The notes under the pieces were generated by a model. That model was not told the DNA's origin, ran no database searches, and worked only from the letters and a program-made list of their open reading frames with translations. Of a DNA stretch of 59,753 nt, positions 39,285 through 46,400 are shown in pieces. The DNA comes from a virus, in the UHGV virus genome UHGV-0209512; one strand, written 5' to 3'. Both the position numbers and the translations under genes were made by a program. Every line of letters begins with the position of its first letter. Positions within the stretch are counted from its first letter, which is position 1.

Positions 39285-39693
39285 GCTGCCGGGCTGGCAG
39301 ACACGTTTATTAACCACAGTAAAGGAGTTGTCATCGACTCCTTTTTCTTGGGGTGAAAATGATTGCTGCACGTTTGCGGCTAAATGTGTTGATGCTCAAT
39401 ACGGTACAACTATCTATGATGAGATAGCAGGTAAATATAGCACAGAGCTTGGAAGCAAGAGATTTTCAATTGAAAAAGTTGGAACAGCTTATCTTCCAAC
39501 TTTGCTGGATGCTTATTTGAGCGAACGGGTTGATAAAAATTATGCGCAAAGAGGCGATGTGGTTACATTTAAGGGAGCTTTAGGCTTAACTGCTGGCATA
39601 TTATGGACGGGATATGTATGGGCCATGGGCCCAAACGGTGTGGAAACGTTCCCGCTTAATAAGATCGAAATTACGGATATTTGGAGGGTCTAA
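39259..39693 (+). CDS. Tail assembly protein with NlpC/P60-like cysteine motif (lambda K-like position)
   Basis: ORF 39109..39693 trimmed to ATG 39259 after GGGGGAG; WGENDCCTFAA suggests a Cys active site. Confidence 0.45.
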   Translation: MRQGSPMSKLPGWQTRLLTTVKELSSTPFSWGENDCCTFAAKCVDAQYGTTIYDEIAGKYSTELGSKRFSIEKVGTAYLPTLLDAYLSERVDKNYAQRGDVVTFKGALGLTAGILWTGYVWAMGPNGVETFPLNKIEITDIWRV

Positions 39694-42344
39694 TGCCACC
39701 AGCAATAATTGGAGCAGCAATAGCTTTAGGTGCTTCCGCTGCCGCTGCGGCGGGGTGGATTGCTACGGGTGTAGCTTTAGCTATTGGTATGGCTGCAACC
39801 GCGGCAGGTGCTCTTCTAACTAAGACACCTAATACAAACTTTAATGCTTATAAAGGTCAACAAGAACGTAAGCAAGTTCTACGAGCAGCCGCAGCCCCGC
39901 GTACCGTAGTCTATGGAACAACCGTTGCTTCCGGTGTTATGGTGTTTGCGGAAGAGCAACCGGGCGATCAAGAAGAAGACGAATTGCTGCACATGGCTTT
40001 AGTTATAGCAGGACACCCTCTTGATGGTATTGGAGATATATGGCTTGGGGATGACCTTGTTCAAACGTTTGAGGATTATGTTACTTGGGAGTTTCATAAT
40101 GACCGTCAGACTGTAGACCCTTTCATGAAAAAGAATTGTCCTTCCTGGAAGGAAGATATGATTGGTAAAGGGATCGCATGGCTTCGCATTAGTTTTAAAT
40201 TTAATGCGGAGAAATTCCCGTCAGGTTTACCAAACGTCAAAATGCTGAAACGTGGTCGCCGTATATACGATCCACGTTCCGGACAAACTGTATTCAGCGA
40301 TAACGCTGCATTAGTCATACTCGATTATTTCCGTACTTACCTAAAACGTAAAGACGAGAATATTAACTGGGATCAGTTTAAAGAAGCAGCTAACATCTGC
40401 GATGAATACGTTCCTAATGCGGATGGTTCTACTGAACAGCGCTATAGAATTAATGGTGAGTTTGAAGTAGATGAAGCGCCTTCTAAAATCCTGGATGCAA
40501 TGCTACAGGCTTGCGGCGGTGAACTAACATATGTAGCTGGTAAACACGGTCTGCTGGTTGGTGCATATTATGGTCCCGCAACAATGACTTTGGATGAAAG
40601 CTGCATTGCTGGCGATATTAAAATTGTTCCGGAGACTTCTTACAAGGAGCGCACCAACACCATTACAGGGACATTTATCGACCCGAAGCAAAACTATGTT
40701 GAAGCCGACTTCCCTCCAGTTGTGGTTAAAGAATGGGTGGAAAAGGATGGCGGGGAAATAACTCAGGATATGGATTTCCGTTTTGTTGCTAGCGAGTATC
40801 AAGCTCAACGTCTAGCTAATATTGTTCTACGTCGTAAACGTGTTGGACGTACAATTGAAATCCCTTGTAACATGAAGGGTTATAAGTTCCGTCCAGGAAT
40901 GTATGTAAAAGTTATCATTACGCAGATTGGCATGAAGAATGTTGAAATGCGTGTTACCAAATGGTCGTTTAACCCTAAAGGCGGAGTTAACCTGACATTA
41001 CGCCAGGATTTCCTGGAGATGTGGGACGATGCTATTGGTAAACCTATGGAGCGCCCGGATCTTGTAGACCTACCTACGGGTGGCGTTGCCCAACCTCAGA
41101 ACCTTCAATATCAAATATTACAAATTAGCGATGTTGTACAGGGGGTTCTATCCTGGACCAATATGGGACAGGTTGCGTATAACCGCGTAGCCGTGCGACA
41201 GGGAGGTAAAACTATTTGGACCGCACAAGTCCCTGGCCAAAGTGTCCGCGTTACTGGGTTGCTGCGAGGCGCGTACACAGCGCATGTTCAAGCGGCATCC
41301 TATAGCGGCGCGGTGTCACCGGAAGCTTATCTAGAATTTAACATTCAAGCACCACCTCCGCCAACGTCTGTTGAGGTACAACAGGGTTATTTTGCAATAA
41401 GCTTGATTCCAAAGTCGGCGGACATTTCAAACGTTAGTACGCAATATGATTTCTGGACTTCTGGTGAAACAAGACTTTCTTCTGCATCTACGGATGTAGT
41501 AGAGCGCGATGCGACTCGTAAAGGTATGGGCACAACATGGACTTCCGAAGGTTTGAAGAATGACCACACTTATTACTGGTACATCCGCACTATCAATGCC
41601 TTTGGATCATCTGCATTTGTAGAGGTTGCTGCAACATGCTTCACAACTGCTACAGAACTAATGCCACAGATTGATGCAGAACTCAAAAAGACGGAGACGT
41701 TTAAAGAGCTTACTGCTGAAATTACTGGTGTTAAAGATGGTGTTACCCAGCTTAGTCAAACTGTAGTAGAAACCGAACAACGTTTAAGTCAAAGTATTAG
41801 CAGCGTTCAGGAAAGCTTAAATGATGTTAGCGCAACTGTACAGGAGACAAGTAAAGCAGTTGTTGATCTGGAAGGCAATGTTAACGCTCAATGGGGTGCT
41901 AAAGTACAGGTCGATAATAAGGGGCAAAAATACGTTGCTGGTATCCAGTTAGGTATGGAGGGCTCCGGTGGTGCTGTTCAATCTTACTTTATGGTGAGCG
42001 CAAACAACTTTGCTGTTTATAACCCGACAAACAGTGTAGCAGAATTAGCCTTTGTCGTTAAGAACGGTCAGGTGTTCATGAAAGCTGCATTTATTGAAAA
42101 TGGATCTATCGATAATGCTAAGATTGGTAACTATATTCAGTCCAACAACTATGTAGGCGGTTCTTCTGGCTGGAGGATTACTAAGGACGGGGCTTCAGAG
42201 TTTAATAATGTTATTGTCAGAGGCGAGATACATGCAGCGGTTGGTAAATTTGGATTCGACGGGAATGGAGGTATAACAATCAATAGCAACGGGATTACTG
42301 TTCCATTATCAGGTGGAGGTAAAGTTGTAGTTGGTAGATGGTAA
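39693..42344 (+). CDS. Tail tip / host specificity protein (lambda I+J-like)
   Basis: ORF 39681..42344 with ATG 39693 after GGAGGG; Ala/Gly-rich hydrophobic N-terminus then a large beta-rich body. Confidence 0.6.
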   Translation: MPPAIIGAAIALGASAAAAAGWIATGVALAIGMAATAAGALLTKTPNTNFNAYKGQQERKQVLRAAAAPRTVVYGTTVASGVMVFAEEQPGDQEEDELLHMALVIAGHPLDGIGDIWLGDDLVQTFEDYVTWEFHNDRQTVDPFMKKNCPSWKEDMIGKGIAWLRISFKFNAEKFPSGLPNVKMLKRGRRIYDPRSGQTVFSDNAALVILDYFRTYLKRKDENINWDQFKEAANICDEYVPNADGSTEQRYRINGEFEVDEAPSKILDAMLQACGGELTYVAGKHGLLVGAYYGPATMTLDESCIAGDIKIVPETSYKERTNTITGTFIDPKQNYVEADFPPVVVKEWVEKDGGEITQDMDFRFVASEYQAQRLANIVLRRKRVGRTIEIPCNMKGYKFRPGMYVKVIITQIGMKNVEMRVTKWSFNPKGGVNLTLRQDFLEMWDDAIGKPMERPDLVDLPTGGVAQPQNLQYQILQISDVVQGVLSWTNMGQVAYNRVAVRQGGKTIWTAQVPGQSVRVTGLLRGAYTAHVQAASYSGAVSPEAYLEFNIQAPPPPTSVEVQQGYFAISLIPKSADISNVSTQYDFWTSGETRLSSASTDVVERDATRKGMGTTWTSEGLKNDHTYYWYIRTINAFGSSAFVEVAATCFTTATELMPQIDAELKKTETFKELTAEITGVKDGVTQLSQTVVETEQRLSQSISSVQESLNDVSATVQETSKAVVDLEGNVNAQWGAKVQVDNKGQKYVAGIQLGMEGSGGAVQSYFMVSANNFAVYNPTNSVAELAFVVKNGQVFMKAAFIENGSIDNAKIGNYIQSNNYVGGSSGWRITKDGASEFNNVIVRGEIHAAVGKFGFDGNGGITINSNGITVPLSGGGKVVVGRW

Positions 42345-42347
42345 CAA

Positions 42348-42367
42348 AAAGGGGCGAAAGCCCCTTT
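42348..42367. terminator. Bidirectional terminator AAAGGGGC-GAAA-GCCCCTTT
   Basis: Perfect 8-bp stem with GAAA loop between convergent genes ending at 42344 (+) and 42366 (-). Confidence 0.6.
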
Positions 42368-43331
42368 AATACATATTTGGTAATGCGATAATTGGTGTTG
42401 GAATAACAATATTTCTTTCAGGTGCTGTTAAGGAGCCGAAGCTGTAGTTCCCTATCCTCTGATTTCTTTCAGCACGTACTTTATTGTTATACATATGAAC
42501 ACCATTATAACGCACATTGTGATAGCCGCCTGTATTAATTGACCTCATTCCGTAGAACCCAAGTTGAATTAATCTATCGCCAATATCCTGGTCACTTGGT
42601 GTCAAAGTTAAAGTTTTATCAAACAAGAAAGGTTTCTTTACTGTGGAGAACGTAACCTGACCAGCGTTATTTGTCATTGTAATACCGTCGCCCGGAGTTG
42701 GTGGGGTATTATTAAATATTACCAGTTCCATGGTAACACTAGCGGAAACATCATCTATCCCCGAATAGGAAGAGTTTCTAACAACTATATTAGTGCCATC
42801 AAATCCAACAGATATTCCGTTCGCATTCCATCTTGCAAAAGGGATTCCAGATACTGGAAGTCGCATACTCCCGTTAACTGTAACAGTACCAGCATACTGA
42901 CAAGTCATTAATTTTGCATTATTTGAAATAGCTGTAAAATCCGTAGAGTTTGACACATACAGACCCGTGTTATATGTAGAAGCAGGTAATACTTCCATGA
43001 TAGATCCTGCCCATTGTGGGAGTTTTCCAGTATACCCAAAAGGATTACCACCCCTTAAAATAATACCAGAATTCCCATTCCTGGAGATGGAGGAGATATA
43101 GAAAGGTGAAGGAACAACAAGACCTTGATCATACACCTCAATGATGTCAACAGGCTTAGTAGGAATTACAAAAACTTCAGAAGCTTGGGTAAGAGTGGTA
43201 TCGATTGTTAAAGTTTGGTCAGATTGACAACGCTGATTAAAGTTAGCACAAAAAGATAAAGCCCGTAGACCTGACGTTATTTGCATTGCAGGTCTTCCGT
43301 CATTGTAGTTTATGTAAATACCTTCAGGCAT
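42366..43331 (-). CDS. Hypothetical beta-rich protein (321 aa) on the opposite strand within the tail-fiber locus
   Basis: ORF 42366..43346 trimmed to ATG 43329-43331 after GGAG; Ser/Thr/Asn/Gly-rich; no signal peptide seen. Confidence 0.5.
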   Translation of the reverse strand: MPEGIYINYNDGRPAMQITSGLRALSFCANFNQRCQSDQTLTIDTTLTQASEVFVIPTKPVDIIEVYDQGLVVPSPFYISSISRNGNSGIILRGGNPFGYTGKLPQWAGSIMEVLPASTYNTGLYVSNSTDFTAISNNAKLMTCQYAGTVTVNGSMRLPVSGIPFARWNANGISVGFDGTNIVVRNSSYSGIDDVSASVTMELVIFNNTPPTPGDGITMTNNAGQVTFSTVKKPFLFDKTLTLTPSDQDIGDRLIQLGFYGMRSINTGGYHNVRYNGVHMYNNKVRAERNQRIGNYSFGSLTAPERNIVIPTPIIALPNMY

Positions 43332-43456
43332 TATGGACTCCAACAATGTGGTTAAAGATGATAGACAATATTGTTTTATATTCTAATTTAATTTACCATA
43401 TTTGTATGCCATAGTGCATCCATTAATTGATCAACTCTGCGAGACAAGAGGTAAAA

Positions 43457-46400
43457 ATGGCAACTCGTTTATATGGTGTTTTGCTTGATGGCTTAAAAAA
43501 ACCAATCGTTAATGCGACGGTTGTGCTCTTAGCAAAAGGGAACACAATAACCGTCCTTAACGGTAGCGAAGCAATTTTTAAGACTGACGCTCAGGGTGCT
43601 TATAATGTCACCGTACAGTCCGGCTATTATAAAGTGATTATAGGTCCACAAGGTATCGAACCTTATAAAGCTGGGGAAATTGCAATATATGCAGATAGCC
43701 CGGAAGGATCTCTTAACAGTTATTTAGTTAACTGGGCGGAAGAAGACTTAACGCCTGAAGTTATTAAACAAGTTAAAGAGCTGGTAGCAGTCTCAGAAGA
43801 GTACGCTCTCCAGGCTGGAAGATCCGCTGCTGCTGCTCAATCTGATGCTACCGATGCACGCAATAGTAAAGCTTCCGCTGCTCAATCCGCCTCGGACGCG
43901 CTTGTGTATAAAAACGACTCTAAAGCTAATGCTGACGCCGCTAAACAGGCACAAGCAGGGGCTGCGGGGTCTGCCAACACCGCCAATACAGCTTTAACCA
44001 CAATTCAGGGCATTCAAAAGGATGTTACAGCGTCCAAGGACCGCGCCGTGACTGCGGAAACCAATGCTAAATCCAGCGAGAATGTGGCTACGCAAGCTAA
44101 AACAGAGGCTGTGACTGCTAAAGATCAAGCTGTAGCGGCTAAGGACAAAGCCAAAGAATATGTAGATAGTATTCAACCTGCAAACTTTGTCGTCAAGTCT
44201 CAGAATTTAGCAGATTTACCTGATAAGACTAGATCGAGAAATAATCTCTCTGCAATGTTAGACTCTAAAGTAGGTCTTGATGCTACTACTGACCTAAACA
44301 GTCTCAACGGTGTAAAGGCTGGGTTTTACTATCAACCAATGTCAGCTAACGCTAAACCTGAACTGAACTACCCCATTGCTTTGGCTGGAGCACTTCTGGT
44401 AATCAAGACAGGTGCTAACACAGAATACTCCTGCAAGCAAGTTTATAGTCTCTATAACAATCCCAATGTAACATACTCAAGAGTTCTTAACGCATCTACT
44501 GGTCCGAATGCGCCTTGGTCTGAATGGAGAAAACATACAGCTTTGGAAAGGGTTGAAGAGGGTCTTTCTACAACTTACATGTACTCCATCTACTCTTTAG
44601 GCTCTCCTAGACTTCAAGTAAATACGGAGGGTTTATGGGGATGTAGTGATGGTACTAGATGGATCCCATTAGCTGTTGCACAAGGTGGTACTGGTGCAAC
44701 TACTATTGAGGATGCCAAAACGAATCTACAAATCCCTGAGGGTGGATTAACAAAAGCCATGTACTTGCAAGCGCCAAAAGGTGCCGAAGATGGTAAATAC
44801 TACCCTGTCATAATCGACGTCTCAGGAATTGAAGGTAACGGAAACCTTACGTGCCCTGTTGATATAAAAACAGCAGGACGTGTATCATCCGATCCGATGA
44901 ATAGCAATACATTTAGCGGGTATTTTAGATGTGGTGGCTGGACTGATACCAAAGATATAGCCTGCGGATCATTTATTGCCTATGATAAAAATGAGCTAGG
45001 GATACTCTGCCTTAAAGTTTCGCAGAAAGATTATCCGCAATATGTAGCGTTCTATATCCATAAAGCCGCTTTCCCGATATTATTGCAAACAGGCTATAAA
45101 GCGCGGGTTATTGTACCAACAGAAGATTATGCGATCGGCACAAACGGCGTCAAATATAAATTTGGTGTATCAACGTCAGAAGAGGGTAATGTCGAGAACG
45201 CAGTTAAAAATGCTCTCGATTTTACTGGCGGAGAAAGCGGGTTTTATAGCAACCTTCCGTTCAGACAAGGGGTGTCAGAAAGGATTGCATTAACAAATGG
45301 CCTGAGTTTTGATAAAAATTTTACCGTCACTATTCCTATATTTGTAAACAATGGTCAGATTAAAGCAACACAATCTTTCACCACGTATGGTACGGACGCT
45401 GCAAACAGAACATTTGTTTCTCAAAGATTACAATCCGAAGGAGGTCCGGTTGTCGATCAAACCGAACTAAGGGCTGCTAATGCTTCTGGTGAAATTGTTG
45501 TCAGAGATACAAATAATTCAAGTAATTCCAAGTGGTTTTCTTTTAAACTTGATGGAACATTTGATGCTTATCATGGGTTAACTCTCCGCACAGGGCATAA
45601 CTGGACTATCCAACATACAGATAACGTAAACAAGTTTAAGCCAATAGCAGGGAGCGCAGGCGGTCCTGACGGAACAATGGTTGTTGGCGGGTTCCATGCT
45701 CAATTTAGCGGTAATTACGTCACACAATTCGCCGGTCGCAACTCCAAATTTTGGGCAAGAAGCTTTGAGGCTGGTGTTGATAAGGGATGGAAACAACTAT
45801 TAACAGTAGACGATCTAAATTCAGCAACCGATCTTGCTGTCAGATCATTAACCACATCTAACCCGGTAAAATCCGGTGGAGGGCGAATTGATGTCCTTGG
45901 AAGCACGTCAGACTATAGCAAAATGGATTGCTTTGTACGTGGGTTTGATAGCACCGGTAATTCTCTCGCGTGGGCGTTGGGTTCATCAGTCGGCGTAAGT
46001 AAGATGCTATCGCTAAAAAATTTCTTTAGCGGAGCTGAGATACTGCTAAATGGCAGTGATGGAGCAGTTCAACTCAAAACAGGTACTGTTGGAGGAGCCG
46101 CTGCGCAAGCAATTACTATAAATAAAGATGAAGTTTATTCAACTGTCAATTTTTCTATTACAAAAGAAGGTAAACGGTTCTCTATAGAAAATAGTGCCAA
46201 CTCTGAGTTATCGTTTAATATGAGGGTATGGGGATCCAGTACCCGTCAAAACGTTTTTGAGGTTGGAACGTCTGCTGCGTATTTGTTCTATGCTCAAAAA
46301 ACATCACAGGGACAACTGTTTGATGTAAACGGTAATATTAACTGTGTAACACTTAACCAATCATCGGACCGAAGACTTAAAGAGAATATCAATGTCATTG

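Follow-up and report, generated by a model that had tools for sequence, protein, structure and literature searches.

The minus-strand gene between the tail-tip and tail-fibre genes of the phage genome UHGV-0209512 very probably encodes the phage's terminal receptor-binding protein (RBP), which is specific for LptD and carried on the tip of the J-like protein. The window, that is the whole stretch of 59,753 nucleotides analysed, comes from a Seuratvirus-like phage (Queuovirinae), and its first 25 kb are ~95% identical to KS_W4, RCIP0359 and PLYYY01. The RBP gene sits in the described hypervariable "RBP locus", directly downstream of gpJ. The preliminary description of this DNA had proposed a host-range accessory. 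A host-range determinant it appears to be, but in all likelihood as the terminal RBP itself, a homologue of the RBP of phage Oekolampad, and not as an accessory. Published work already covers the family, its locus and structure, and the coupling to the J terminus, and nothing here is new for the field. For annotation, the name "receptor-binding protein (LptD-type, DUF6453)" is preferable to "hypothetical" or "membrane protein", and with it the terminal receptor LptD becomes predictable from sequence alone. The features of the locus are listed in Table 1.

Table 1. Features of the J/RBP/lateral fibre locus, in window coordinates
Feature	Position	Strand	Basis and remarks
J-like central tail-tip protein, presumed RBP carrier	39681..42344	+	887 aa as listed, TTG start; phrog, Pfam and PDB matches
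RBP-type-specific J C-terminal adaptor (putative)	42252..42341	+	last ~30 codons, residues 858-887, ...FDGNGGITINSNGITVPLSGGGKVVVGRW
GC-rich 8-bp hairpin with tetraloop	42348..42367		between the convergent J and RBP stops; direct folding
CDS of the RBP (DUF6453 family, probable LptD type)	42366..43331	-	ORF, Pfam, phrog, PDB and Foldseek matches
Ribosome binding site GGAG	43338..43341	-	6 nt upstream of the RBP ATG, read from sequence
AT-rich 42-nt block	43367..43408		in the 125-nt divergent gap between RBP and lateral fibre genes; presumed promoter(s)

The gene and its product

The reading frame of the RBP opens with an ATG (43331-43329) and closes with a TAA (42368-42366), giving a product of 321 amino acids. 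The TTGGAGT motif at its ribosome binding site is kept in all five of the aligned LptD-type Queuovirinae. A version five codons longer (326 aa, TTG start) was rejected because the homologues are all 321 residues long and start with MPEGI or MGxGI. The AlphaFold2 model, computed with 59 homologues as input, has a mean pLDDT of 90.2 and consists of 24 β-strands with no helix of four or more residues. Serine, threonine and asparagine make up 26.5% of the protein versus 16.9% in the window's long ORFs. Thus the picture first drawn from the sequence, of a β-rich, Ser/Thr/Asn-rich protein of 321 residues encoded on the minus strand between tail-tip and tail-fibre genes, proved accurate in each of these respects.

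The database labels point in a different direction. The protein matches phrog_1265 (E 3.5e-115), which is filed as "moron ... membrane protein", and gp23 of Sodalis phage SO-1 is labelled a membrane protein. Together with transcription against the structural operon, these labels would fit a non-structural product, either a factor for receptor masking or superinfection exclusion or a membrane protein of the "moron" kind in the infected cell. The properties of the protein make this reading most unlikely. A search for a signal peptide, a lipobox or a hydrophobic segment in the RBP gave none; the N-terminus, MPEGIYINYNDGRP..., is without a hydrophobic leader, and the maximum Kyte-Doolittle hydropathy over 19 residues (KD19) is 0.84. 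The Oekolampad homologue is soluble when purified and binds LptD from the cell exterior (PMC12685063). The "membrane protein" label was rejected on these two grounds, the hydropathy and the soluble, externally binding homologue. Lipoproteins of the Llp/Cor/Rtp45 type have a lipobox signal peptide and ~60-80 residues, features that the 321-residue RBP does not share. The real exclusion proteins of the module are separate lipoproteins of 73-76 aa belonging to phrog_4281. It is these that do the masking, and the receptor-masking role first suggested for the RBP was not upheld.

Family, fold and receptor

Against the Pfam family DUF6453 (PF20051) the RBP scores 407.6 bits, where the gathering cut-off is 25; its residues 4-297 align with positions 1-290 of the 291-position profile. 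A sequence search of the PDB with the RBP gave a single match, chain C of 9RPT/9RPW/9RQI (E 2.2e-132, residues 2-321). A Foldseek search with the RBP model found the same chain, 9rpt_C (E 6.5e-29, target-normalised TM-score 0.90, rmsd 2.3Å), and no other PDB fold match at E <= 0.001. Chain C of 9RPT is the RBP of the BASEL phage Oekolampad (Bas18), determined by cryo-EM with the LptDE LPS translocon (Dunbar et al., PNAS 2025, PMC12685063). It engages LptDE in the open state, from the extracellular side, and point mutants of LptD lose both binding and infection. The tail-proximal part of the RBP is disordered in the cryo-EM map (PMC12685063).

Close relatives of the window RBP are found in four BASEL phages. 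Identity is 87.9% to bas20_0020 of FritzHoffmann, 81.0% to bas25_0021 of VogelGryff, 65.1% to bas19_0020 of ChristophMerian and 62.6% to bas18_0025 of Oekolampad. Each of these proteins has 321 residues and aligns with the window RBP without indels; this exact length, free of indels, is kept across the RBPs of three lineages (Queuovirinae, Dhillonvirus and Drexlerviridae) whose sequences diverge by up to 37%. Spontaneous loop-deletion mutants of lptD are fully resistant to seven phages, including all four named above (Maffei et al. 2021, PLoS Biol, PMC8594841). A screen of 255 coliphages distinguished four protein families at the hypervariable RBP locus, one of which is specific for LptD, and assigned RBPs to the LptD type at >30% identity over >99% coverage (bioRxiv 10.64898/2026.04.02.716166). 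The window RBP, at 62.6-87.9% identity over all 321 residues to the RBPs of the four LptD-dependent phages, falls well inside these limits. Binding to LptDE and dependence on lptD were demonstrated with the homologues, and the LptD specificity of the window's allele is transferred from these relatives. On this footing, outer-membrane LptD is most likely the target of the RBP in the window phage.

In the alignment, the N-terminal ~30 residues and a core of residues 121-235 are the most conserved parts of the RBP, and residues 31-110 and 241-310 the most variable. This pattern, with N-terminus and core kept and loops variable, agrees with the mapping of Black et al. (PMC13035648), who located the conserved RBP residues in the base next to the tail, the part that includes the N-terminus. 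The variable parts raise the question of receptor choice. Loops that correspond to receptor contacts in the homologue lie within them, and one residue known to make such a contact has changed: Gln299 of Oekolampad, which bonds Ser350 of LptD, is Gly299 in the window. An allele of the same tail-tip family might therefore have a different outer-membrane protein as its receptor, or need a second receptor besides LptD. There is a precedent for dual receptors in Bas01, which needs NupG as well as LptD, although its NupG specificity resides in J (255-phage screen). Such a shift is nonetheless improbable in the window phage. Its RBP shares 88% and 81% identity with those of lptD-dependent phages, and across the 255 phages the family at >30% identity is associated specifically with LptD. 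The window J carries no extra distal domain and ends 30 residues past the point where a J without a DUF6453 partner diverges. An LptD-specific RBP remains the favoured identification.

Gene order and strand

The J-like protein upstream of the RBP gene matches phrog_31 "central tail fiber J" (E 1.6e-187) and the Pfam families Phage_Tail_Tip and Ig_J_second; its PDB matches are the J proteins of lambda and Oekolampad. The stop codons of J and RBP are convergent and 21 nt apart. On the other side of the RBP gene is the lateral tail fibre gene (43457..46744, plus strand), whose product of 1095 aa has a prophage tail-fibre N-terminal domain and a C-terminal Peptidase_S74 chaperone domain. FritzHoffmann, VogelGryff and ChristophMerian have an identical layout, in which a lone RBP gene of opposite orientation separates J from the lateral fibre. 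In Oekolampad (Dhillonvirus) and Chapo (Drexlerviridae) the RBP gene is likewise convergent with J.

The strand is different in most other carriers. In a sample biased to near-identical prophages, the RBP gene abuts J in all 87 loci that hold both, 79 of them co-directional (gap 5-15 nt) and eight convergent. In the IMG/VR and bacterial-genome loci that were read, J and the RBP gene stand in this order on one strand, with a fibre gene next in line. Records naming RBP homologues come from Citrobacter, Salmonella, E. coli and Klebsiella. Opposite-strand placement is thus a lineage feature of virulent small siphoviruses and no property of the gene. The preliminary description had said that finding an ordinary conserved structural gene in all relatives, with normal timing, would speak against its account. 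This is largely what the relatives show, the RBP gene coming directly behind J and in the same orientation in 79 of the 87 loci of that biased sample. Its place in the late structural operon of these loci also argues against a masking or "moron" product.

Adjacency to the lateral fibre gene allows still another interpretation. The two genes are divergent and share a conserved intergenic block, and the product could serve the fibre as an accessory or in its assembly, for instance as a chaperone or an adaptor. The fibres, however, vary from phage to phage, with 1095 aa in the window, 633 in ChristophMerian, 606 in Oekolampad and unrelated fibres of 411-443 aa in prophages, whereas the RBP keeps its 321 aa and its gene invariably lies next to the 3' end of J. 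The window fibre also has its own intramolecular chaperone in the C-terminal Peptidase_S74 domain. A role in fibre assembly can be given very little credence. The RBP tracks the C-terminal motif of J while fibres differ between phages, and the proposal of a fibre-associated protein was not sustained.

The J terminus and its coupling to the RBP

The window J ends in ...NGITVPLSGGGKVVVGRW. The motif NG(I/V)xV(P/N)L(S/P)GGGxVxVG(R/T)W terminates all eight J proteins that were read beside a DUF6453 gene. These are the J proteins of the window (...GGGKVVVGRW), FritzHoffmann, VogelGryff, ChristophMerian, Oekolampad, Chapo and two prophages, and they represent four backgrounds (Queuovirinae, Dhillonvirus, Drexlerviridae and prophages). 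Two other Seuratvirus phages, SeppeHuegi and OddieOddie, have no DUF6453 partner. Their J proteins (1040 aa) are 81% identical to the window J up to residue 857 (residues 5-857 for SeppeHuegi) and then diverge, carrying a ~150-aa extension in place of the DUF6453-type end. Because the motif is present in every J read beside a DUF6453 gene and divergence in SeppeHuegi and OddieOddie sets in after residue 857, the terminal ~30 residues of J are part of the RBP module. From this co-occurrence we infer that they form the docking site for the conserved N-terminal base of the RBP; the variable tip of the RBP would then be the part that enters LptD. Homology, fold, locus and J motif were all established on the window itself.

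PDB entry 23gd may bear on this docking. Its chain D is the full-length J-like tail tip protein gp24 of Oekolampad (1148 aa, one chain). No RBP sequence turned up from the entry, and a literature search on it found no paper.

At its other end (39681-39830, plus strand) the J-like protein has an Ala/Gly-rich hydrophobic stretch of ~45 residues (PPAIIGAAIALGASAAAAAGWIATGVALAIGMAATAAGALL), which is common to the short (906-aa) prophage homologues of J. The true start of J may be an ATG four codons past the listed TTG.

Transcription signals

The gap between the J and RBP stops is filled by a hairpin, AAAGGGGC-GAAA-GCCCCTTT. Its folding energy is -13.9 kcal/mol on the minus strand (z -3.1) and -20.3 kcal/mol on the plus strand (z -4.3). 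On the RBP strand the hairpin is followed by UUUUUGUU, on the J strand only by UUUAAU. The hairpin therefore qualifies as a canonical intrinsic terminator of RBP transcription, while for J it is weaker. This modifies the bidirectional terminator first described, in that the hairpin is present and canonical for the RBP strand but less effective for the other. A consensus terminator scan did not report the hairpin, which direct folding did show, since the stem takes up part of the U-run. A terminator is annotated at the matching place in phage Chapo, on both strands, and also in SA80RD, SA126VB and others.

Standing alone on the opposite strand at this locus, the RBP gene must have its own transcription start, which bears out the independent transcription suggested in the preliminary description. 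A fibre promoter region had also been named there. As stated it is unsupported: a search for sigma-70-like sites in 43332-43456 found none on either strand, and the regional count equals the shuffle expectation. Within this gap is the AT-rich block, which is 100% identical in the window, FritzHoffmann, VogelGryff, ChristophMerian and an IMG/VR locus (L003), phages whose RBPs are only 65-88% identical. It is the presumed site of the promoter(s) of the RBP gene, the fibre gene or both. The block was rejected as a repeated phage promoter motif, as it occurs once in the window even when three mismatches are allowed.

The missing exclusion lipoprotein

In Oekolampad and Chapo a lipoprotein of 73-76 aa (phrog_4281) is encoded immediately upstream of the RBP in the same minus-strand operon. 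The Oekolampad lipoprotein is treated as an exclusion factor, and the 35%-identical Rtp45 was solved at the periplasmic side of LptDE (Dunbar et al., PMC12685063). The cognate lipoprotein accompanies the RBP in Oekolampad, Chapo and Rtp; it was not found in the window. The 125-nt gap upstream of the window RBP is too short for such a gene. When the window was searched by tblastn with bas18_0026 of Oekolampad, no match rose above noise (best E 2.1), and an HMM of the Oekolampad and Chapo lipoproteins had a best E of 0.24 against 973 six-frame segments of the window. FritzHoffmann, VogelGryff, ChristophMerian and the IMG/VR locus likewise have no exclusion lipoprotein gene beside the RBP.

A lipobox scan over all start codons of the window gave two weak candidates. 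The better one (50543..50364, minus strand) encodes 59 aa with the N-terminus MIVALIFTVIGGC... and is 95-98% conserved in 36 phage records. It was rejected as the cognate exclusion factor, being conserved in Seuratvirus whatever the receptor type, including the non-LptD phage SeppeHuegi. In SeppeHuegi and OddieOddie the slot between J and lateral fibre holds only a 77-aa lipoprotein (phrog_12984), on the opposite strand.

The absence of the cognate lipoprotein from this lineage is a small residual point. One tentative and rather doubtful explanation is that LptD-targeting Queuovirinae use an unrecognised, non-homologous factor encoded elsewhere to keep infected cells and progeny from adsorbing futilely to LptD, or do without exclusion. 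If true, the LptD-type Queuovirinae would offer a natural test of the worth of receptor masking.

Proposed mechanism

The RBP would be a monomeric, all-β DUF6453 protein, made presumably late in infection. Its conserved N-terminal "base" would bind the trimeric J-like protein non-covalently, at the conserved C-terminus of the latter, probably with one RBP copy per tail. At infection the adjacent lateral tail fibre would make only the first, reversible contact with surface glycans. The variable, loop-bearing tip of the RBP would then insert into the extracellular face (EL3-5 and EL11) of open LptD, the essential outer-membrane LPS translocon, and this insertion would lead to irreversible adsorption and trigger DNA ejection.

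At the level of the genome, the gene would form a host-recognition cassette that can be swapped and lies downstream of gpJ. Among the virulent small siphoviruses (Queuovirinae, Dhillonvirus and Drexlerviridae) the cassette would have been inserted tail-to-tail with J, closed by the shared hairpin terminator and provided with its own upstream control region. The RBP would lie on the opposite strand because of this orientation of insertion.

Comparison with known systems

Oekolampad bas18_0025 resembles the window RBP in its DUF6453 family, length of 321 aa, predicted fold, opposite-strand position at the 3' end of J and the J motif. The two systems differ in the gene for the 73-aa exclusion lipoprotein, bas18_0026, which is upstream in the Oekolampad operon only, in the length of J (1148 aa versus 887 aa in the window) and in the contact loops, of which residue 299 is an example.

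FritzHoffmann, VogelGryff and ChristophMerian have the same layout and a divergent intergenic region of ~120 nt with the same 42-nt block, and for these phages lptD dependence has been shown. Their RBPs differ from that of the window only as alleles, mostly in residues 161-200 and 241-310; there are differences in the lateral fibre genes as well.

Phage Rtp (Drexlerviridae) also has a separate LptD-binding RBP, Rtp44, downstream of its J homologue. Its predicted fold is very similar to that of the Oekolampad RBP, at only ~33% identity (PMC12685063). Rtp44 is paired with Rtp45, which binds LptDE from the periplasmic side, whereas no such partner was found in the window.

The FhuA-binding RBP of T5, pb5, which goes with the lipoprotein Llp, is likewise a monomer dedicated to receptor binding, attached to the central fibre tip by non-covalent contacts, and its tail-proximal part is also disordered when bound to the receptor. 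It belongs to an unrelated family with another receptor and is absent from the sequence and fold matches of the window RBP.

The J proteins of lambda, SeppeHuegi and OddieOddie, which have their receptor-binding domain built in, share the tail-tip scaffold with the window J. In SeppeHuegi and OddieOddie the same opposite-strand slot between J and lateral fibre is in use, but the receptor-binding domain is built into J as its C-terminal extension and there is no separate RBP.

Additional observations

Seven phage records labelled "Campylobacter phage A1xx" (MG065663-MG065675) carry an RBP 79-80% identical to that of the window, and an RBP is also present on contigs of Nitratidesulfovibrio liaohensis and Dyella japonica assemblies (loci L090 and L092). 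All of these are probably enterobacterial phage sequences under a wrong label or present as contamination.

The next gene downstream of the lateral fibre gene, at 46916-47620 (plus strand), encodes a 234-aa protein of phrog_9288 (function unknown). The protein is Gly-rich at the N-terminus (GGDGFGGEAGAAGIGG..GWGGNGWGG), contains several Cys-Cys motifs and carries PTPPTPPTGCC at the C-terminus. The small ORF at 48889-49092 is likewise Cys-rich.
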